From the IMG/VR virus record IMGVR_UViG_3300020043_002699, positions 1-26,615 of that record: 26,615 nucleotides of DNA. One strand, written 5' to 3'. This DNA is from a virus (Duplodnaviria; Caudoviricetes). Positions 4,151 to 25,603 of the stretch are shown here, piece after piece (positions within the stretch are counted from its first letter, which is position 1; each line of letters starts with the position of its first letter). The position numbers were made by a program, and so were the translations under genes. A model generated the notes under the pieces. The model was not told where the DNA came from, did no database searches, and saw only the letters and a list, made by a program, of their open reading frames with translations.

Positions 4151-5062
4151 TTATGCAGTGTATTGATAGAACGCGATTTCGTCACCGAATCCGTACTGAA
4201 CACCTGCAAAGAACTGAGCAGAGAAACGAACGTTTTGTGAAAGGTCGTATTGGTACATATCCAAAACTGCTACGTTGTTCCATTGGTCAAGTAAGTTAGT
4301 ACCGAACCACAAGTTAGACTTTTGGTACATAGCCATTGTGTCGTCAGACATACCAGGACACTCGATGATGTCGTATTGTCCTTGCCAAGTCATCTTAACA
4401 GTCTCACCTTGATACAAGTAAGAACCACCGCCAAGACCTAAGATTGCAGTTCTGTAAGCCTCAGCAACGTTTGAAGATACTGCGATTACAGGCTTCTCAG
4501 TAGCACGACGAACGCGTGTTGGAAGTGTCAATACAAGACGAGCCATTTCTTCAATTACGTTTGCAGAAGTGATAGCCTCTGGAGTAGCAACATCAAGAAC
4601 AGAAGCGTCAGCCAAGAACAAAGTTTCGAAACCTGCGTACTCACCTGTTGTTGCGTTCACACCTTGCCACATTACGCGCTCGTTATTAGCAGCGATACCT
4701 GCCATTACGTTAGCAATGATAGCGTCAGTCAATGAAGCATGAAGTTCGTTGTTTTGCTCTGAACGGCTCTCCCAATCTTTTAAAAAGTCATTTTTACACA
4801 AATTTCTCTGTACTTGGAATTTTTCCAAAGTCAAAACACGCTCGCTTAATGCAACAGTTCCAAGTGGAGTGAAGTCGCAAGTAGGTGCTTCGAAAGTGAT
4901 GTTGTCAACTAAGCGACGAACAACTTGTTTGTACTCAATGTTTTCTTTGAAAGTAACAGCAGCCAAAGACTCGTTACTTAAGAACGCAGCGCGGATATAT
5001 CCTGCAGCTGCAGTACCAGCAAATGTTGAGCTGATAGGGTTTGGTGATAATGTAGTAGCCAT
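4151..5062 (-). CDS. Major capsid protein
   Basis: 303 aa, follows protease and scaffold, strong codon bias. Motifs TCDFTP.G.V.L.ERVL and NLWFGT.LL.D.N.V are typical of these capsids. Confidence 0.85.
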   Translation of the reverse strand: MATTLSPNPISSTFAGTAAAGYIRAAFLSNESLAAVTFKENIEYKQVVRRLVDNITFEAPTCDFTPLGTVALSERVLTLEKFQVQRNLCKNDFLKDWESRSEQNNELHASLTDAIIANVMAGIAANNERVMWQGVNATTGEYAGFETLFLADASVLDVATPEAITSANVIEEMARLVLTLPTRVRRATEKPVIAVSSNVAEAYRTAILGLGGGSYLYQGETVKMTWQGQYDIIECPGMSDDTMAMYQKSNLWFGTNLLDQWNNVAVLDMYQYDLSQNVRFSAQFFAGVQYGFGDEIAFYQYTA

Positions 5063-5081
5063 TTTTTATTGTTTGTTTTTT

Positions 5082-5657
5082 TTATTTGTTTAAGTGAAAT
5101 ACGAAACGCTCCTCAGCCGACATTTTAGCGTATGGCTTAGAAGGTGCGGTAACTTTTGCTTGCTTTACTTCTTTGATTGAAGGCGCAGCAGGCTGAGCGC
5201 TTAATTTTGTCACTTCGCTTGAAAGTTCTGCGTTTGCTTTCTTCATTTCAGAAAGTTCGCTTTCAAGTTTTGCAACTAACGAAAGAAGTCCTTCAACCTC
5301 TGCGTTTAGTGATTCCTCAGCAACAACCTCAGAAGCTTGTTCTTCTTCGATTACTACTTCAACCTCTGGTTCTTTTTCTTCTTCCATTGGTTTTAATTCA
5401 GTCACAAGACCACCCTCAACAACTACAATGATGCTTTCAGCTGTCTTGTATTCTCCGTCAGCCAAAACAACCTCGTTGCCTTCTGCGTCTTTGCCGAATA
5501 CACGAACACCCGCAGCCCATACATCGCTGTCTGAGTAAATGCTTGTACCGTCCTCTAAAATTGCTTCAACCATTTGCTTCACCTCAACTACTTCTTCAGC
5601 AGATAGGCTAACATTGTGTTTTGCGAATAGAGCGTTTACTTTTTCTCGTAAATTCAT
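5082..5657 (-). CDS. Capsid scaffolding protein
   Basis: Very acidic, with LEDGT and LADGEY motifs and a coiled-coil C-terminal half; immediately upstream of the capsid gene. Likely start MNLREKV (5657); an in-frame ATG also exists at 5729. Confidence 0.75.
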   Translation of the reverse strand: MNLREKVNALFAKHNVSLSAEEVVEVKQMVEAILEDGTSIYSDSDVWAAGVRVFGKDAEGNEVVLADGEYKTAESIIVVVEGGLVTELKPMEEEKEPEVEVVIEEEQASEVVAEESLNAEVEGLLSLVAKLESELSEMKKANAELSSEVTKLSAQPAAPSIKEVKQAKVTAPSKPYAKMSAEERFVFHLNK

Positions 5658-5675
5658 AATTCTGTTAATTGTTTG

Positions 5676-5708
5676 TTTGATTCGTAGATATAAAAAGAGG
5701 TATATTTG
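5676..5708 (+). promoter_or_regulatory. Bacteroidota primary-sigma promoter, antisense to the head operon
   Basis: TTTG (5676-5679), 21-nt spacer, TATATTTG (5701-5708) matches the -33/-7 consensus TTTG-N19-21-TAnnTTTG. Confidence 0.7.
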
Positions 5709-5712
5709 TTTC

Positions 5713-5785
5713 GTAATTCGCTTTTTCATAGGTTGAATTTGATTTTTAGGTTTGAACGGGGGAGTGATTACCCCCGTTTTTTTTT
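5713..5785 (+). ncRNA. Candidate small RNA (~70 nt)
   Basis: Bounded by a consensus promoter and a plus-oriented intrinsic terminator; no ATG-initiated plus-strand ORF inside. Confidence 0.55.
5755..5785 (+). terminator. Intrinsic terminator oriented on the plus strand
   Basis: AACGGGGG-AGTGATTA-CCCCCGTT with a T9 run (5777-5785). The minus-strand reading has no U-tract after the hairpin. Confidence 0.8.
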
Positions 5786-5960
5786 ATCCTAAATTGTCGA
5801 GAATCGCGTTTAATACTTTCATCTCGTCTTCACTCAATCCGTACGTCTTAAAACCCATTTTACCGCCCTCGTTCGTTATCTTAGTGAGTGCGTTAAGAAA
5901 CAGGTTAGCGTCATCGTTGAACAACTCCAACTTAAAGAAACCACCTGCCTCGATATTCAT
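5784..5960 (-). CDS. Hypothetical protein (58 aa), not in ORF track
   Basis: MNIEAGGFFKLELFNDDANLFLNALTKITNEGGKMGFKTYGLSEDEMKVLNAILDNLG*; TAATG stop/start coupling with the protease gene. Confidence 0.7.
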   Translation of the reverse strand: MNIEAGGFFKLELFNDDANLFLNALTKITNEGGKMGFKTYGLSEDEMKVLNAILDNLG

Positions 5961-6865
5961 TACTTATTCGGATTATAAGCCCAGTTCAAAAGACTAATCG
6001 TGCGCTTACTTCCGCAAACGTTTCCATTGCTATCTTCTAAAATATCACCCGCTTGATTTTCACGCATTCTATTTATGAAAGCAATTGTCTTTCCTGCATC
6101 TTCGTAGTGTTTCTCCGTCCAATCGGCTTTGTTCGTTTGTAACAATTCAAGATTTCTTTCGATTGGTGAACGATCAAGTGAAGCCAAAGTTGAACACTCC
6201 GTTTCTGACCACGCTTTTAGTTCTGAATAAGTCATATTCACCGCGCCCATATAATCATCATAACGCGCTTCAATTTCTTCTTGTGTGGCTAACGCTAACA
6301 ACTGCTCTAATTCTTCAATTAAGGTGGGTTGTTGTTCGCTTAGATACATTTCTTTCTCTGCGATGAAGTTTCCTTCGATAGAAAAGCCAAGAACCTCTTT
6401 ATTTTGTATCTGCTTCTTCACTTCTTCGTTCTCCACTTTCATACAACCAAACCAAGTACCTTCTGGAAGGTCAAACCCAAAGTTCTTCGACTTGTCGTTT
6501 TCTCCTTCAATAATCCACGTCTCAACCAAAGACACTCCGTCAACCACTTTCGCGTGTTCAACTGTTGCGTTGTTTTGGTTCGCTTGTTTCAAATAATTGT
6601 AAGCAATAGCGCGAATGGTGTCTTTCGAATACTTCACATAGTATTCCTCGTCTGTTTCGTCGTTGCGTCTGTAAATCAGTTGATCGGGAATCAATAACGC
6701 TCCATACAAAAGACCTCTAAAATCTTCTTTGAACTTAACGTTGTGTTGTTCGCTCAATGCTACAAAGTCTACACCGATTGCAGGTTGTTCTACGACGCTA
6801 ATCGCGTACACTCCAAGAAGTCCCGCGTCGTCGATTCCGTATTCAATAACTTTAATTTTTTTCAT
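5960..6865 (-). CDS. Prohead protease (XkdF-like) with C-terminal DUF3140-like domain
   Basis: AISVVEQPAI, LIPDQLIYR, TVEH, ETWI, LPEGTW and GFSIEG protease motifs; C-terminal VNMT.SEL..W...SLLNWAYNP. Confidence 0.85.
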   Translation of the reverse strand: MKKIKVIEYGIDDAGLLGVYAISVVEQPAIGVDFVALSEQHNVKFKEDFRGLLYGALLIPDQLIYRRNDETDEEYYVKYSKDTIRAIAYNYLKQANQNNATVEHAKVVDGVSLVETWIIEGENDKSKNFGFDLPEGTWFGCMKVENEEVKKQIQNKEVLGFSIEGNFIAEKEMYLSEQQPTLIEELEQLLALATQEEIEARYDDYMGAVNMTYSELKAWSETECSTLASLDRSPIERNLELLQTNKADWTEKHYEDAGKTIAFINRMRENQAGDILEDSNGNVCGSKRTISLLNWAYNPNK

Positions 6866-6869
6866 TGTT

Positions 6870-9098
6870 TTATCCTCCTAAGCGAGATTGATTATTTATT
6901 AATTGTTGTGCTTCTAAATTGCTTGACACTTGTGTACTTACAACATAGGCTTGAAGCGGTGGTTGTTGTTGGTTGGGTTGATTGCCCAAGAACGCGAAGT
7001 TGGCAGGTGAAGGTGGTGTTAATCCTCCCGTTCCTCCACCACCTACTGAAGGAGTTGAAAGACTTGCGCCTCCACCGCCCATAAATTTACTTACTCCACT
7101 TGCTACAATTGCTGCGATAGATGCTGCTGCGTTTAAGTTGTTCGCTGCAAACATTGGTGCTGCACTCGCTGCCGCCAATGGTAATGCTAATGGTCCAGAA
7201 GAAGAATAAAACGCTAATTGCTTTGCAAGAATTTCAGCATTTGCTGCTCTGTTACTCACTACTACTTTTGCAATAGCAAGACCTTTTTCAAGCGCAAAAG
7301 CCACATCTGCTGCCTTTTTATTTTTGGCGAAAAGTGTTCCTAATAAAGATATTGAGGAATTTGCTATATTCCATTTCGCTTCGGCAAGTTGTGTTTGGCT
7401 TTCAATTTCCCAATCAATTTGTTGCTTTTGTCTTTCTTTTTCTTTTTCTGCCGCTTTTTGTTTTTCTTCAAGAAGTTTTTCATCGGCATCTTGTTGTTGC
7501 TTTAATTTTAAAGCATTTGCTTCTTCATCAATTTTTGCTTGTTCCGCGTCACCTTTTTGAAGTATTTCTACAATATGTATGTTGTGTAATTCTTCAAGTT
7601 CTTCTAATTCTTTTTTAGATTTTTTAGCACGTATATAAGTTTCTCTTTGTATTTTATATTTTTCTTCTGCTTGATAAATCTCAGCCTCAATATCAGACAT
7701 TCCACGACGCTTAAATTGAGCAATGTCTTTTTCAATATCTGCAACATCTTGAGCAAGTTTTTTCTTGTCTTCTTCAATCTGTCTTAATCTTTCTTCACGT
7801 TTTCTTTTTGCTTCTGCATCGGCTTCTTCTTTTGCTCGTTTTTCAGCTTCTAATTTTGCTAATTCTTCTTCGGACTTTACAGCGTCCATTTTTGCCTTAG
7901 CAGATTTTACTAATAATCCTAATTCAGAAGTTCTACCAAACATAATTTGCTTGAGTTGTTCAATTTCTGAATTACCTGCATTTATTCTATCTTGAAGACC
8001 TTTTTTTAATTTACCTTCAATTGCTTCACGAGATTTGTATGAGTTATCAATCCAAGTTGATAAATCTCTTTCGGTAAGTAATCCTTGATTTTTTGCATCA
8101 ATTATTTCTTGTTGTGTGAAACTTTGTCTTGACAACATCGCATTCATAGCGTTGATGTCTAACATTTTGTTTTTTATTGTTTCAGCATCTTGTCTTGAAA
8201 GTGTTTTAATTGATTCAATCGCATCAAGCTCAGCTTTAGCAGCTTCATTTTTCTTTTGTTGTAATCCATAAGCTGCATCCGTTGTACGTTTTGCTTCTTC
8301 AACACCAGCATTAATTTTTCCTTCAAGTTGCGCTTGAAGAAGTTTTAAATCATAGATTGCTTGTTCTTTTACTTTTATTGCTTCTGTTCTTGCTTCTGTA
8401 TCTCCTTTTAGTGTAGCAAGTTTTTCTTCTTGAATAGCAATATCTATTTTCTTTTTAAGAATAGCAGTTTCTTGATTGTATTGACTTTCAATACTTATTC
8501 CTTTTGCTTTTTCAGTTGCAAGTTGAGTTTCTAAAATTCTTGCTTCATCTTGAAGTATTTGTTTTTGTTTTTCAAGTTTAGAAATGTCACTTGAATTTAT
8601 TAGTCCATTTAACTCTTTCCAATAAGCGACAATACCAACTAATGCACCTGCTATTCCAAGAAGTGGATTTTGAGCCACTAAACTAAATAATCCTTTTATA
8701 GCACTTTTTGCAGCACCTAACATTTCTTTAAAGCCATTTGTGATGTCTTCTGGCTTTAATTTTTTTAGGTTAGTTCCAAATAATGAAATTGATTGTGATA
8801 ATCCAGTAAAATCCAAATTTCTCATTTGCTCACCCATAAGACCAAACGAAGTCCGTAAACCTTCTATTGCTGGACCTGTATTTGCTCTTACTGCATTAGC
8901 AGTCTGATTTAATTGATCTTTTAACTGTCCTGCTCTTGCTGCAGCCTTTTGAAATTCAATAGATTTTGAATCCATTGATTGCATCTGCTTTTGTAAATCA
9001 TTTAATTCACGTTTAGCATCATTCGCCGCTTCAGTTGTTTCATTTAAATATGTAATTGCATTACCGCTTACATTAAATTGTTTTGTTGTTGCCGCCAT
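6870..9098 (-). CDS. Tape measure protein
   Basis: 742 aa, long E/K/A-rich helical/coiled-coil stretch, hydrophobic segments, Gly-rich linker and a C-terminal AYVVS.V motif. Confidence 0.8.
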   Translation of the reverse strand: MAATTKQFNVSGNAITYLNETTEAANDAKRELNDLQKQMQSMDSKSIEFQKAAARAGQLKDQLNQTANAVRANTGPAIEGLRTSFGLMGEQMRNLDFTGLSQSISLFGTNLKKLKPEDITNGFKEMLGAAKSAIKGLFSLVAQNPLLGIAGALVGIVAYWKELNGLINSSDISKLEKQKQILQDEARILETQLATEKAKGISIESQYNQETAILKKKIDIAIQEEKLATLKGDTEARTEAIKVKEQAIYDLKLLQAQLEGKINAGVEEAKRTTDAAYGLQQKKNEAAKAELDAIESIKTLSRQDAETIKNKMLDINAMNAMLSRQSFTQQEIIDAKNQGLLTERDLSTWIDNSYKSREAIEGKLKKGLQDRINAGNSEIEQLKQIMFGRTSELGLLVKSAKAKMDAVKSEEELAKLEAEKRAKEEADAEAKRKREERLRQIEEDKKKLAQDVADIEKDIAQFKRRGMSDIEAEIYQAEEKYKIQRETYIRAKKSKKELEELEELHNIHIVEILQKGDAEQAKIDEEANALKLKQQQDADEKLLEEKQKAAEKEKERQKQQIDWEIESQTQLAEAKWNIANSSISLLGTLFAKNKKAADVAFALEKGLAIAKVVVSNRAANAEILAKQLAFYSSSGPLALPLAAASAAPMFAANNLNAAASIAAIVASGVSKFMGGGGASLSTPSVGGGGTGGLTPPSPANFAFLGNQPNQQQPPLQAYVVSTQVSSNLEAQQLINNQSRLGG

Positions 9099-18889: not shown

Positions 18890-19281
18890 TTGTTTAATAT
18901 GATTGAATTGAATTCGGTTTCTGCGTTTATAATGTAAGTTGTAATTTCCTTATGAAGCGTATTAATGTTAAAAGCAATTTCGTAAAATTCCAATTCAATA
19001 GCATCTGCTTCAGCCATTAAGCAACAGTCCAAAAAGTATTGAGTGTTAATAGTTGATTGATTACCTGCGTGATATCCTAACCAAAATCCTTCTATCAAAC
19101 TTTCTGAATTTGCATTGTAGTTTAAAAATCTAAAATTGTGACCTTTAATGTTGCTTACCAACATATACCAAGAAGCACCGTCAGTTTGAAAGTCATTGTC
19201 ATTAATAAAACCATAGTTTTTATCAAACCATTTTATTTGATGTTCTGGAACTATTACAAGTTTGGTTTCTGTATGTGTCAT
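18886..19281 (-). CDS. Hypothetical protein (131 aa), AT-rich
   Basis: Open frame with ATGA coupling to the next gene. Confidence 0.65.
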   Translation of the reverse strand: MTHTETKLVIVPEHQIKWFDKNYGFINDNDFQTDGASWYMLVSNIKGHNFRFLNYNANSESLIEGFWLGYHAGNQSTINTQYFLDCCLMAEADAIELEFYEIAFNINTLHKEITTYIINAETEFNSIILNK

Positions 19282-19639: not shown

Positions 19640-20074
19640 TTATTCACCTATTTCAACATCTTTCATTGATTCAAGAAAAGTATTGATGTCTTTCTTCACA
19701 CAAGGCGAACAAGTAGAACGCTCGTTGAACGCTCCTGTGGCTTTATCCTTGAACGAATAGAACTTCAACATATCTTTCTGTTCCAAACGTCCCTGGGCTT
19801 TCATATCGAGCAAGAATCGTTTGAACTCGATTTGTTCTTCCATTGAAAGAACACCGTCCCATTTAGACGCTGGACAAGATGCAAAGGCTAACTTTGCTTT
19901 GATAGGCATAACACAGCCACAAAGTTTAATTGACTTTTTGCGGAATAGGACTTCGGTTTCTACTTCTTCGCCAACGATCAATGGCCCACAACTTTGAGTT
20001 GATGCTTCGAAGAATTTACAGGTTCTACAAATTTCTAACCTGCGTTTGTACTCATTACTTTTTGCGAATAACAT
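19640..20074 (-). CDS. Cys-rich putative Zn-binding protein (DUF6171-like N-terminus)
   Basis: RLEICRTC...C...LCGCVMPIK...CP..KW plus a C-terminal CSPC. Confidence 0.65.
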   Translation of the reverse strand: MLFAKSNEYKRRLEICRTCKFFEASTQSCGPLIVGEEVETEVLFRKKSIKLCGCVMPIKAKLAFASCPASKWDGVLSMEEQIEFKRFLLDMKAQGRLEQKDMLKFYSFKDKATGAFNERSTCSPCVKKDINTFLESMKDVEIGE

Positions 20075-20555
20075 TTGCTCTTATTTTTTGTTTGATACTA
20101 TCAATTGTTCTGTACAAAAATACAGTTGGTATTCCTGTTTGTTTGGAAAGTTCTCGGTAGGTGAAACCTTCAAAGATGTATTCTTGAAAGATAAGCCTTT
20201 CAAACTCACTCAGACGACTAATTAGAATATCCAATTGCTCGTTGGTCATTCGTGCACCTAACCACGTCTTGTCCACTTCGTGAGCGTATTCTTTGAAGTC
20301 ACGACGATTACGATTCCACGCGATTGTTTGTTTGTAAAACGGAGAGGTTGGCGAATTGACTGCGAGATACATTACACGGATTAAATAGAACTCAAAGTCG
20401 CCTGTGTCGATTAGGTTTTCAATGTGTTTACTTCCAAACATAGAGAGCAAAGAGTCGTGAAGCAAATCTTCATAGTAGTCTTCGCCTCGCGAGATATTCT
20501 TCGCAAGTTCTTTGAACTTTTTGTAGTGTCCTTCTATGTAGTGGTCAAGTGTCAC
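20055..20555 (-). CDS. ECF-like RNA polymerase sigma factor (probable late-gene sigma)
   Basis: Region-2-like EDLLHD..L and region-4 HTH LSEFERLIF...GFTYRELSKQTGIP. Confidence 0.75.
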   Translation of the reverse strand: MTLDHYIEGHYKKFKELAKNISRGEDYYEDLLHDSLLSMFGSKHIENLIDTGDFEFYLIRVMYLAVNSPTSPFYKQTIAWNRNRRDFKEYAHEVDKTWLGARMTNEQLDILISRLSEFERLIFQEYIFEGFTYRELSKQTGIPTVFLYRTIDSIKQKIRANVIRKK

Positions 20556-21611: not shown

Positions 21612-21778
21612 AAGTAGAACTAATTCAAAAGACGACGCTTACAGATATGTATTACGTCATCAAAGTAAACGGAGAATTTCACATGTCGTACAATCACTAC
21701 GACGAAGCGGTGACAGCATACGACCGAATCAAACAAGCAACACCACGCGAAGAAATAATACTATCAAAAGAAATCTAA
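21608..21778 (+). CDS. Hypothetical protein (56 aa), not in ORF track
   Basis: MKVELIQKTTLTDMYYVIKVNGEFHMSYNHYDEAVTAYDRIKQATPREEIILSKEI*. Confidence 0.7.
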   Translation: MKVELIQKTTLTDMYYVIKVNGEFHMSYNHYDEAVTAYDRIKQATPREEIILSKEI

Positions 21779-22024
21779 AAACCAATAAATCAAATGAACA
21801 ATGAAAGAGCCAATTTTTACAAATCAATTTTTCTCTTTGAAGAAGAAGTACAAATTCTTATTGACGGAATCATTACCGCACAAAATTACTACGGTAATCA
21901 GAAGAATGGGTCAACCTCTAGGGATCAACTGTGCGAACAACGAATTGCAGAACTTGAACGAGTATTCCTCAAAGTTACTACTTCGTCTTGGAAAGAATTA
22001 CCAGAGCCACCAAAAGAAATCTAA
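21765..22024 (+). repeat. 14-bp direct repeat CAAAAGAAATCTAA
   Basis: Identical copies at 21765-21778 and 22011-22024. Confidence 0.8.
21794..22024 (+). CDS. Hypothetical protein (76 aa)
   Basis: A-rich leader (AAATCAA-ATG) and amphipathic helices. Confidence 0.65.
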   Translation: MNNERANFYKSIFLFEEEVQILIDGIITAQNYYGNQKNGSTSRDQLCEQRIAELERVFLKVTTSSWKELPEPPKEI

Positions 22025-22120
22025 CTTTATTTGTGTTTATTCGAGCGCGTCAGCCTATAACCTAACTCACAACGAGATAGCAGCCAACATTGAGAAACAT
22101 CAAAAAATTTCAGAATTGCG

Positions 22121-22150
22121 TTGGAACGACGAACTAATTGAATATATTTG
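22121..22150 (+). promoter_or_regulatory. Second early promoter
   Basis: TTG (22121-22123), 19-nt spacer, TATATTTG (22143-22150), 22 nt upstream of ATG 22173. Confidence 0.65.
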
Positions 22151-22172
22151 TAACCACTAAAAATCAAAATCA

Positions 22173-22454
22173 ATGTACAATCCAAAAATCACTTATCACT
22201 TTTCAATGGACGACATCAAGCGTCTGAATGAAGAAATCAAAGTAATTGCGCAGAACTTCGAACACGAAAACGGTTGGTTTCATGAAAACCAAGGACGCCA
22301 GTTCACAGACGAAAACGGAAACACTTTCGACTTTGATGTTCTTGGACGCTTCTTTCGCAAAGATGAACCCGACTACGATCTCCACTACGTTCGTTTGAAG
22401 AAAGACGGAATAACATTCGAGTTCGACTATCGTATCTTCCAAGACCGCATCTAA
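22173..22454 (+). CDS. Hypothetical protein (93 aa)
   Basis: A-rich leader and typical codon usage. Confidence 0.75.
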   Translation: MYNPKITYHFSMDDIKRLNEEIKVIAQNFEHENGWFHENQGRQFTDENGNTFDFDVLGRFFRKDEPDYDLHYVRLKKDGITFEFDYRIFQDRI

Positions 22455-23293: not shown

Positions 23294-23713
23294 ATGAATA
23301 ATAAACCATACAATAAAAACAAAATGAAAAATCAAAAGCCATTTAACATTGAAAGAGTTCGTGAATTTTGCAAATTAGTAAATAACGGATTGAAACCAAA
23401 AGAAGCACTTGCAAAAATGAATACTTGTGAAGGTTATCAAATGCCTCTAAAAAAAGCAGGTTTATTCTGGAAGGAAAAAGACGGAAGTTATAAAGCCGTT
23501 GAGCGTATTCGAACTGACCGTTATGAATTATTTGTAAGTGAAAAAAAGAATTACAATAAATACAAAAACAAAAAGCAGTATAAACAATTTGCAAAACAAC
23601 CGACACTTTTCAACCAAGCAAAACCAAAACAAACAACAGCGCAAAAGGTAAAGGTAAAACAACCTCAATTGAACTTCATTCAACGTATTGTAAAATCAAT
23701 TTTTAACCTGTAA
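23294..23713 (+). CDS. Very basic hypothetical protein (139 aa), AT-rich
   Basis: Lys-rich open frame; the start may be the second Met. Confidence 0.65.
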   Translation: MNNKPYNKNKMKNQKPFNIERVREFCKLVNNGLKPKEALAKMNTCEGYQMPLKKAGLFWKEKDGSYKAVERIRTDRYELFVSEKKNYNKYKNKKQYKQFAKQPTLFNQAKPKQTTAQKVKVKQPQLNFIQRIVKSIFNL

Positions 23714-23717
23714 CAAA

Positions 23718-24011
23718 ATGAAAAAATTAGTATCACTTGAAAAGCGTGTTGAGAAACTACTCAAACAGGCGAAGAAATACCGCAACGATAACAAAGCACT
23801 TTGTGTGAAGATATGGCAAGACCAATTCGCAGAGCGTAAAGACATCACAAGCAACTTCTTTGCTATGTATGAACTTGGTAAGTACACGACAGCCGACAAC
23901 ATCACACGCATAGCGCGATTAGTTAAGGAACGCAATCCAGAACTACGCGGAACGAACCACGAAGAAAACAAGAAGAAAGAGCAGTTGATTAAACCACTAT
24001 TGAAAAAATGA
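23718..24011 (+). CDS. Hypothetical protein (97 aa)
   Basis: RNDNK.L...IW and ITR..R......PELRG motifs, common in phage proteins. Confidence 0.75.
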   Translation: MKKLVSLEKRVEKLLKQAKKYRNDNKALCVKIWQDQFAERKDITSNFFAMYELGKYTTADNITRIARLVKERNPELRGTNHEENKKKEQLIKPLLKK

Positions 24012-24247
24012 ACAAACAAATCTATTCAACACCATTCGGTCGCCTCGTCAAAAGTCAATTTAAGACGATGCACAACTTCAAGAACGTCTTGCGCATCAGC
24101 GACCCAACGGCACGACTTTACGTTGCACATCCAGAGCGAATGAGAATGAAAGACTTCAACAACATTTGTCTGCACACAGGATTGTCACGCGAAGAAGTAT
24201 TCAGCACATTTACACCAACAATTTTAATAAACGAAGAAAATGACTAA
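24008..24247 (+). CDS. Putative Cro/XRE-like HTH protein (79 aa)
   Basis: FKNVLRISDPTARLYVAHP is HTH-like; gene is coupled to neighbours. Confidence 0.5.
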   Translation: MNKQIYSTPFGRLVKSQFKTMHNFKNVLRISDPTARLYVAHPERMRMKDFNNICLHTGLSREEVFSTFTPTILINEEND

Positions 24248-24773
24248 CGAACAAATAAGACAGCAAATAGTAGATATGATACCGTTTGCACACATGGAAC
24301 GCTTTGAAACACTATGGACAATGCTTACTCCGAAATATGAACGTTTGAGCAGCGAACAAATCAAACAACAACAGGAACTCGAAAACGAGCGTGAGATATT
24401 CTGGAGCGCACTTGAAGACGTTGTTTGTAGCGTTGTGGGTATTCAGTCTCAAATGCTTTACACACCAACAAGAAGACGCGAGATAGTGACAGCACGACAA
24501 ATTATTTTCTTTTTAATTCGTCCTTGTTACTTTCAGTCTTTCGAATCAATTGGTAAGCACTACGGAAAGGATCACGCGACAGTAATGCACGGAATCAAAC
24601 AAGCGACTTGGCAGATTGAGTGCGACAAAGCCTACGCGGCAACTGTTGAACGTATCTGTGAATTGATGAACGCGATGGGTTATGCTAAACCTATTAAATT
24701 TTTCACTAAGTTTGTTGAACACTTAGAGCACCAAAAACAACTAGAAGCAAAAAGAAAAGCCAAATTAAAATAA
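24240..24773 (+). CDS. DnaA C-terminal (domain IV) HTH protein lacking the AAA+ domain
   Basis: RRREIVTARQIIFFL...SFESIGKHYGKDHATVMHG matches the DnaA signature R.R.I..ARQ...IG..FG.DH.TV.H. Confidence 0.85.
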   Translation: MTNEQIRQQIVDMIPFAHMERFETLWTMLTPKYERLSSEQIKQQQELENEREIFWSALEDVVCSVVGIQSQMLYTPTRRREIVTARQIIFFLIRPCYFQSFESIGKHYGKDHATVMHGIKQATWQIECDKAYAATVERICELMNAMGYAKPIKFFTKFVEHLEHQKQLEAKRKAKLK

Positions 24774-24792
24774 ACCTTAAAATCAAAAATCT

Positions 24793-24987
24793 ATGAGCGA
24801 CTATTGCCGTTATTGCGATTCAGACCAAATTGAAGAACGCATTGAAGAAATCAAAAGAACAAACAGAAAATATCGTGACTGGGACGACAGCGACGTGCAG
24901 GAACTATTCGAAGATGAAATAGGTCTTTGTTACGAATGCACACGCGAAGAAGACGCTGACGATTACAAAGGGGAGGGTTGGGACTAA
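24793..24987 (+). CDS. Small acidic protein with two CxxC pairs (64 aa)
   Basis: CRYC ... CYEC; strong A-rich leader. Confidence 0.7.
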   Translation: MSDYCRYCDSDQIEERIEEIKRTNRKYRDWDDSDVQELFEDEIGLCYECTREEDADDYKGEGWD

Positions 24988-25181: not shown

Positions 25182-25603
25182 TGCTAATACTACAACTAAA
25201 AAAGAGAATCGAGATTCTCGAAGCGCAAATAAAGGAACAAGACCAAAAGATAAACGATATTCTTATTCGCTTATCCGTTCCACAGGCTAACCTTCCAGTA
25301 CCAACAAAAGAAAAAAAGACTGCGTTCGTTAAACCAACGGTTGTTGAAATCTACGAATACGCCTGCGAAAAGTTAAGCAACGACGACGCGCTTAAATTTA
25401 CCGAGAAATTCCACGCTCACTACGAAGCGAATGGTTGGAAGGTGGGAAGGAACGCGATGAAGGACTGGAAGGCTGCCGTTCGCAAGTGGGACTTATCTAC
25501 CTTTGTAACTACAAACCAACAAACAAAAATCAAAAATGGAAAATTCGATTCAGACGCTGCGCAACGCATCTACAACGACGCTCACAACTACACAAAGGGT
25601 TGA
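25181..25603 (+). CDS. Replication-initiator C-terminal-like domain protein
   Basis: F.KPT..E...Y and F..HYEANGWKVGRN.MKDWKAAVR.W motifs, preceded by a coiled coil. Confidence 0.7.
   Translation: MLILQLKKRIEILEAQIKEQDQKINDILIRLSVPQANLPVPTKEKKTAFVKPTVVEIYEYACEKLSNDDALKFTEKFHAHYEANGWKVGRNAMKDWKAAVRKWDLSTFVTTNQQTKIKNGKFDSDAAQRIYNDAHNYTKG

Follow-up and report, generated by a model that had tools for sequence, protein, structure and literature searches.

A candidate small RNA gene in the late module of a tailed phage, predicted to be antisense to early-gene start regions

The locus described here raises the question of why a short plus-strand unit (5701-5785), in which a -7 box of host type is followed by a U-rich body of 42 nt and then by an intrinsic terminator, sits among late genes that are read from the minus strand. 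The window, that is the whole stretch of 26,615 nucleotides that was analysed, is a virus record that is 86% complete. Its late arm is formed by minus-strand genes, among them those for the portal, an XkdF-type protease, the small terminase and a sigma-like protein, while its early arm is formed by plus-strand genes from 21070 onward.

The locus and the anatomy of the unit

Next to the unit lies a minus-strand gene (5082-5657) without a PHROG or Pfam match, which is called scaffold-like from its position; the labels "scaffold" and "capsid" are both taken from gene position. On the other side are a minus-strand ORF of 58 aa (5784-5960), conserved in 21/21 genomes, whose stop codon overlaps the terminator U-tract, and the XkdF-type prohead protease gene (5960-6865, minus strand; PF14550, E 7e-15). 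At its C-terminus the protease carries an extension that varies and is weakly similar to DUF3140, and many relatives match its residues 1-190 only. The capsid-like protein shares 28% identity with one from P12024L, a flavobacterial phage, and from this relative, together with the promoter style and the leader style, we infer that the host belongs to the Bacteroidota. A tyrosine integrase (PF00589) was found in none of the five complete relatives; other routes to lysogeny are still possible.

An earlier note, made from the sequence of the window, had described a complete promoter, body and terminator here, and the positions that it gave were confirmed: TTTG at 5676-5679, a spacing of 21 nt, TATATTTG at 5701-5708 and the body at 5713-5754, with the letters as quoted. 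The box at 5701-5708 (plus strand) is of the TAnnTTTG type of the host primary sigma factor (sigma-ABfr type), a -7 consensus given in the available text of PMC7366714. Transcripts of F. johnsoniae start at a 4-nt spacing after the -7 box (PMC6847099, available text), and the inferred +1 of the unit, 4 nt past the box at 5713, is a purine in 77/77 of the loci compared below. The consensus promoter claimed by the earlier note stands in its -7 half, which is present in 77/77 loci, and is weaker in its -33 half: the putative -33 TTTG (5676-5679, plus strand), which overlaps the inferred late start site of the opposite strand, occurs at the 21-nt spacing in 47/77. The terminator does carry its U-tract in the plus direction only, as had been stated. 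It consists of a 9-bp stem and U9 (5754-5785, plus strand), with the stem-loop at 5754-5779 and nine T at 5777-5785, and there is no other terminator-like site within 4500-7000.

The predicted body (5713-5754, plus strand) is a U-rich 42-mer as described, but it is not wholly unpaired as had been supposed. A weak 5' hairpin is predicted at 5715-5739 (plus strand), and its loop, UUUCAU (5724-5729), carries an anti-AUG. Hairpins with a UUUCA loop were predicted in most of 36 body variants, in differing registers and with a mean z of -0.77, and the hairpin was not recovered in the RNAalifold consensus. The 3' 14 nt of the body have an unpaired probability of 0.9 in the window variant. The invariant unpaired core, UUGAUUUU(U/A)GGUUU (5739-5753, plus strand), is anchored to the terminator and is likely the seed of the predicted RNA. 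The full 74-nt fold has a z of -2.4, a score that the terminator drives. RNA contigs from four runs, with small word shares, leave 5704-5767 without cover; contigs cannot reveal a 73-nt RNA.

Elsewhere in the window, upstream of a 131-aa ORF at 19281, a second host-type -7 box on the minus strand (19610-19527) is followed by about 70 nt able to fold two alternative hairpins, one formed by GUCAAGCG/CGCUUGAC and the other a terminator-like stem followed by U7. This element occurs in 4/21 genomes, where it shows compensatory changes, and is possibly an attenuator or a second small RNA.

Conservation and predicted early-gene targets

We fetched 80 protease-bearing loci, 76 of which extend to the scaffold start, and these together with the window gave 77 loci. 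When the protease-scaffold gap was aligned across them, as the earlier note had proposed, the promoter box and the body core were found in 77/77 and the terminator stem covaried. The sequence TAnATTTG lies exactly 46 nt from the scaffold ATG in all 77 loci, and the -7 box varies at its first n alone (TATA in 51, TACA in 13 and TAGA in 13), which is a free position of the published consensus. The core, TTGATTTT(T/A)GGTTT at the DNA level, was present throughout (77/77). Among 56 distinct variants, and with gaps counted as mismatches, the identity of the body was 0.82, a figure that its U-richness raises somewhat, and that of its 3' 16 nt was 0.88; four-fold sites gave 0.65, promoter spacers 0.44 and second codon positions 0.89. 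The body is under purifying selection. The anti-AUG (CAU), present in the window as claimed, is kept in 63/77 loci, a weaker conservation than the claim implied. For the terminator stem, 288/288 cells were paired across 32 sequences and 4/9 pairs show two-sided changes; its base pairs switch between A-U and G-U, with the G-U pairs at the base of the stem, and a plus-strand RNA therefore suits this stem.

What such an RNA might pair with was suggested by matches to the leaders of early genes, two of which proved real (15/16 at 24772-24787 and 16/17 at 22157-22173). A 16-mer complementary to the body core occurs nine times in the window with at most 3 mismatches, counting the unit itself, where 1.6 occurrences were expected; none of 100 shuffles reached nine, and 6/8 of the non-self matches are on the plus strand in the early region. 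When pairing was set against shuffled controls, 15 early starts had a mean energy of -15.6, compared with -11.9 for the shuffles (0/300 as low). For 27 late starts the mean was -12.3 against -11.7 (p 0.22). In this comparison four start coordinates on the early strand were shifted by 1 nt and that of the portal was placed wrongly. All of these except the methylase start were corrected for the accessibility-aware energies, and among 12 late starts scored with folding costs none stood out. These energies come from RNAduplex and cofold applied to low-complexity sequence.

The best predicted target is the start of ORF64 (24770-24808, plus strand; ATG 24793), which encodes a small acidic CxxC protein. 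Apart from the unit itself, neither strand of the window offers a better site than this duplex of -29.7 kcal/mol, which has the CAU on the AUG in register and extends into the first codons; a late coding region holds the second-ranking duplex, and the start of ORF76 ranks third. With accessibility counted, 0/40 shuffles did as well as ORF64, and z was below -2 in 14/20 genomes. The start of ORF76 (21778-21816, plus strand; ATG 21794) likewise gave 0/40 shuffles, with z<-2 in 18/21 genomes, as did that of ORF97 (23683-23742, plus strand; ATG 23718; a weak HTH), with z<-2 in 6/14. Neither ORF76 nor ORF97 had been named in the earlier note, and both outpair ORF93 once accessibility is counted. 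The leader of ORF93 (22156-22178, plus strand; ATG 22173), which immediately follows a -7 box of its own in 21/21 genomes, was matched by 3/40 shuffles and had z<-2 in 13/21. ORF251 (25511-25556, plus strand; ATG 25536) is a possible target only, since 18/40 shuffles did as well in the window while z was below -2 in 10/20 genomes; its start lies just behind its own -7 box in 16 genomes. Two of the three targets originally named, the ORF64 and ORF93 leaders, were retained, whereas the third, at ATG 21498, was equalled by 9/40 shuffles. The accessibility-aware energies ruled out this site, and ORF251 in the window, as targets.

The same early bias was seen when the window and 20 relatives, each with its own RNA variant, were compared over 41 gene families. 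The five best-pairing families were all on the early strand (ORF64, ORF76, ORF251, ORF93 and ORF97), and starts with z<-2 numbered 68/282 on the early strand against 23/528 on the late strand; these counts over 21 genomes are not independent because the genomes are related. Ten of the 15 early families were near shuffle level, so most early starts are without pairing, and in the early orf59 family the start was mis-chosen. Co-variation between RNA and leader, a check that had been suggested, came out weakly: own pairs beat cross pairs with p 0.03 for ORF64 and p 0.024 for the sum, relatedness being ignored. A whole-genome duplex scan of 10 of the 20 genomes was noisy, with many matches within coding regions.

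The products of ORF64, ORF76, ORF93 and ORF251 have no Pfam or PHROG match. A search of the Atlas returned nothing for ORF93 and, for ORF251, unnamed viral clusters only, with DUF6633 on 11% of one. In the same region, the early gene at 24240-24773 (plus strand) encodes a DnaA C-terminal helix-turn-helix domain (PF08299, E 5e-17) and is found in 21/21 genomes, and a 119-codon alternative frame over ORF76 (21800-22160, plus strand) is open in 21/21.

Similar units in other phages and alternative readings

The exact core of the clade was found in 11/11 close loci and in 0/40 distant ones (scaffold identity below 65%), a count that leaves out loci too short or without a scaffold match. Full units nevertheless occur further away. 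In a clade of 13 loci represented by L383, whose identities to the window phage are 40% for the protease, 32% for the scaffold and 45% for the capsid, a complete box, body and terminator occupy the same slot on the late strand, and L368 has a box, body and hairpin in the orientation of the window. A small divergent protein gene takes up the slot upstream of the scaffold in L221, L222, L334, L339 and L348; in L221 and L222 it is driven by a -7 box as in the window. Nine other distant relatives (L313, L314, L316, L322, L330, L356, L357, L365 and L370) carry U/G-rich stretches such as TTTTGGTTT with a terminator on the late strand, starting right after the protease stop, and these stretches are possibly 3'-UTR-derived relatives of the candidate RNA.

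Scanning 25/64 parts of IMG/VR for the box, TTT(A/T)GGTTT and T7, with the hairpin optional, gave 119 loci, 62 in the clade and 57 outside it. Forty of these 57 have a hairpin below -8 kcal/mol and fall into 13 crude families, one of which is the L383 clade; 13 representative loci gave nothing at the Rfam gathering score. A control scan with CC for GG over the whole of IMG/VR returned 85 loci, 3 of them with a hairpin below -8 kcal/mol. No such unit was found in P12024L by a generic finder, and a look-alike in L224 was not scored by model R1.

An independent case comes from G030, an unrelated phage whose unit is placed antisense, with the large terminase on one side and the following late gene on the other. 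The predicted RNA of this phage pairs with four early starts of its own genome, which begin ATGAGAA (z -4.1 to -6.1 in a set of 53 genes) and include those of a methylase and an Erf-like gene. Cross-pairing between G030 and the window phage was at shuffle level in both directions, the targets having been chosen as the best of each RNA. Conservation, terminator covariation, the early target bias over 21 genomes and this independent case together support the reading of the unit as a stand-alone sRNA gene, predicted to be antisense to early start regions. As for the broader proposal of a phage RNA that silences early genes, the anatomy and the early complementarity were borne out, whereas one of the three targets and the action in cis on an upstream ATG at 5729 were not.

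A different destination for the RNA has to be weighed first. It could be a real sRNA directed mainly at early mRNAs from other phages or at host mRNAs, such as those of envelope or receptor genes that begin MKK, as with FopS; the match to the phage's own leaders would then reflect a leader style common to Bacteroidota. The consensus of FopS and the body both have UUUUUCAU and GAUUU-AGGUU, and where a body-like pattern matches Bacteroidota sequence, the match is the reverse complement of a real gene start, in many cases one of an MKK, signal-peptide-like kind. Some host targets are plausible because this motif precedes real bacterial genes in GTDB. ATGAAAA, moreover, begins few of the phage's own targets, and six of the seven other unit-bearing genomes have weak own targets or none: own targets were clear in G030 alone, weak in G034 (4/74), and not clear in G031, G032, G033, G037 and G038, of which G031, G032 and G037 are 24-69% complete and G037 is without most early genes. 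Host targets are possible for the units of G031 and G038, since no own targets were found there. However, when we scored 276 roughly called starts from three Bacteroidota genomes used as stand-ins for the true host, 18/276 had z<-2, none reached -25 kcal/mol, and MKK/MKN starts accounted for 3/28. The long motif occurs 0-1 times per genome in 5 Bacteroidota genomes, and the anti-AUG part of the G030 RNA follows the ATGAGAA starts of that phage. A GTDB search for the body plus T7 gave 51 matches, none with a hairpin below -8 kcal/mol and none above 27 bits with model R1. We regard mainly host or foreign targets as rather unlikely for the window phage.

Records G031, G038 and G039 (loci L415, L425, L439 and L451) contain two related units of box, body and terminator with an identical terminator; one of the two, in G031, lies beyond the 3' end of a convergent late gene and has an integrase-like ORF nearby.

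The complementarity could also be incidental, if the body were an inverted strong gene-start cassette lying beside an ordinary terminator of stray antisense transcription. The low complexity of the sequence and the weak co-variation would fit, as would the many distant relatives in which the protease stop is followed only by a U/G-rich stretch and a terminator, or which have a small divergent gene instead. Against this, the body is under purifying selection, its core is anchored to the hairpin and not to an ATG, the combination of box, core and terminator is far commoner with GG than with CC, and there is no upstream plus-strand gene for the terminator to serve. An incidental origin appears improbable.

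The promoter has to be considered together with what lies on the opposite strand. A late-type motif, TTTT(A/C)TATnT(A), is located before the scaffold-like gene at 5685-5695 (minus strand), back-to-back with the sRNA promoter. It recurs at 9120-9110, before the tape-measure-like gene, and at 18504-18494, before the small terminase, both on the minus strand and without an upstream CAAATnTAC. The motif at 5695-5685 is likely a late promoter, probably read by the phage sigma-like protein encoded at 20055-20555, and since the other late promoters lack a -7 box, the latter is not required by it. An invariant Y-AAA at 5679-5676 fits a late start at about 5678. RNA contigs of relatives from two studies end at 5678 and 5679, with no loose end, while a run that is probably DNA continues past; this is a weak hint of the same start. 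The earlier note had also proposed that the RNA acts in cis on an in-frame upstream ATG of the scaffold gene (5727-5729). The ATG is present, but an action on the scaffold is poorly supported because the inferred start at about 5678 falls downstream of it.

The promoter itself might then be the functional part, with host polymerase at the -7 box occluding the late scaffold promoter until the phage sigma arrives and any RNA working in cis alone, on transcripts that read through from the protease operon. The back-to-back promoters with invariant spacing in 77/77 loci, the box that drives a divergent small protein gene in L221 and L222, and the perfect cis duplex of -63.7 kcal/mol speak for it. 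It leaves unexplained the conservation of the body, the early-target bias and the sense-strand unit of the L383 clade, and taken as the whole explanation it is very improbable; occlusion can coexist with a damper of early mRNAs. Scarcely credible is the notion of a longer scaffold protein that begins at 5729 and has its leader and first codons in this stretch, an alternative that largely failed when checked: although some upstream in-frame ATG is open to the scaffold in 75/77 loci and gene callers often assign 205-215 aa, the extension varies without codon-position bias, column resampling predicts an open frame at 0.90-0.92 (52/53 observed), the body ATG is lost or out of frame in many variants and L032 carries a stop, the late promoter sits downstream of ATG 5729, the RNA contigs of two studies stop at 5678-5679 (a weak point), and the L383 unit, being on the late strand, cannot be a scaffold leader.

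Proposed role and known systems

That the unit is a functional small RNA, whatever its target, seems to us highly probable. On the sequence comparisons made here, we also lean towards a more specific role, a predicted 73-nt trans-acting RNA that would dampen the translation of some early mRNAs of the phage itself. Host RNA polymerase would make it from the start of infection, and its unpaired 3' core and looped anti-AUG would pair over A-rich initiation regions, covering the ribosome-loading region and the start codon of the ORF64, ORF76, ORF97 and ORF93 mRNAs and perhaps that of ORF251. Initiation regions of Bacteroidota ribosomes have A at -3, -6, -12 and -13 (PMC6847099, available text). 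As the RNA accumulated, it would slow the synthesis of early proteins after a delay, and it might also repress early mRNAs brought in by a superinfecting relative. The sRNA promoter would overlap the divergent late scaffold promoter, with starts about 35 bp apart, and mutual exclusion between the two could therefore be expected. Because the promoter is of host type and the RNA would be made alongside its targets, a damper fits better than a sharp switch.

More tentatively, and without calling it probable, we propose that host-promoter-driven anti-leader sRNAs form a class that is widespread in Bacteroidota phages, including those without an integrase, each tuned to its own early leaders and serving as an RNA timer of early translation. 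Members of such a class would sit inside late modules in either orientation and take advantage of the way this phylum initiates translation, on A-rich leaders without SD; they may also keep out superinfecting relatives. In the available part of the table of PMC12197685, those characterised phage sRNAs that have phage targets act on single genes, mostly in lysogeny, exclusion or lysis, and none is from Bacteroidota phages. If true, repression of the translation of several early genes by one RNA, in a phage that apparently does not integrate, would add a new layer to the control of lytic timing and give a function to motifs common to early-gene leaders. The scan pattern yields a list of further candidate families.

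Nothing in the window reached the Rfam gathering score. The sub-threshold matches (L20 leader, SQ2397 and FopS) we read as similarity to a terminator and U-rich sequence. In the main texts of literature mostly outside subscription journals, no description of an RNA of this kind from Bacteroidota phages came to light.

The closest likeness is to FopS (Rfam RF04319) and GibS of Bacteroides thetaiotaomicron, which in the available texts (PMC11697453, PMC7366714) are RNAs of about 70 nt with a host-sigma promoter, a U-rich 5' part, an intrinsic terminator and a UUUUUCAU-type seed over the start region of a transcript's first gene; ORF93 and ORF251, behind their own -7 boxes, resemble such first-gene targets. 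Pairing at start regions is how FopS blocks translation (PMC11697453, available text). By sequence motif the unit has the sigma-ABfr promoter of FopS (-7 in 77/77, -33 in 47/77), but the candidate RNA scores 21 bits (E 0.19-0.92) where the Rfam gathering score is 56 bits, and FopS comes as multicopy paralogues whereas the 86%-complete window has one full match. By score and copy number the candidate is not a member of FopS, though it resembles it. It differs further in being phage-encoded, with a weak predicted 5' hairpin and with predicted targets among the phage's own early genes, where FopS, in the same texts, targets host susC genes. One FopS sequence is reported in a Caudovirales phage, with no phage-internal role given in the available main text of PMC11697453.

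Two better-known phage RNAs, c4 of P1/P7 and sar of P22, are likewise phage-encoded, 68-77 nt long, and block translation around a phage ribosome binding site (PMC12197685, available part). They act on an antirepressor mRNA in temperate enterobacterial phages, whereas several unrelated early genes are predicted as targets here; the candidate has no Rfam C4 match and its predicted targets have no antirepressor match. The SAS of Cluster K mycobacteriophages, in the available text of PMC3203893, is similarly a common motif just before non-structural start codons, with a single opposite-orientation copy in four genomes, and an RNA or protein partner was suggested there as possible. SAS is an SD-like 13-mer for which that text identifies no partner, whereas the opposite copy described here has a promoter box on one side and a terminator on the other. 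Set beside these systems, the unit, a conserved candidate sRNA gene, is a well-supported example of a recurring and apparently undescribed variant of anti-initiation sRNA.
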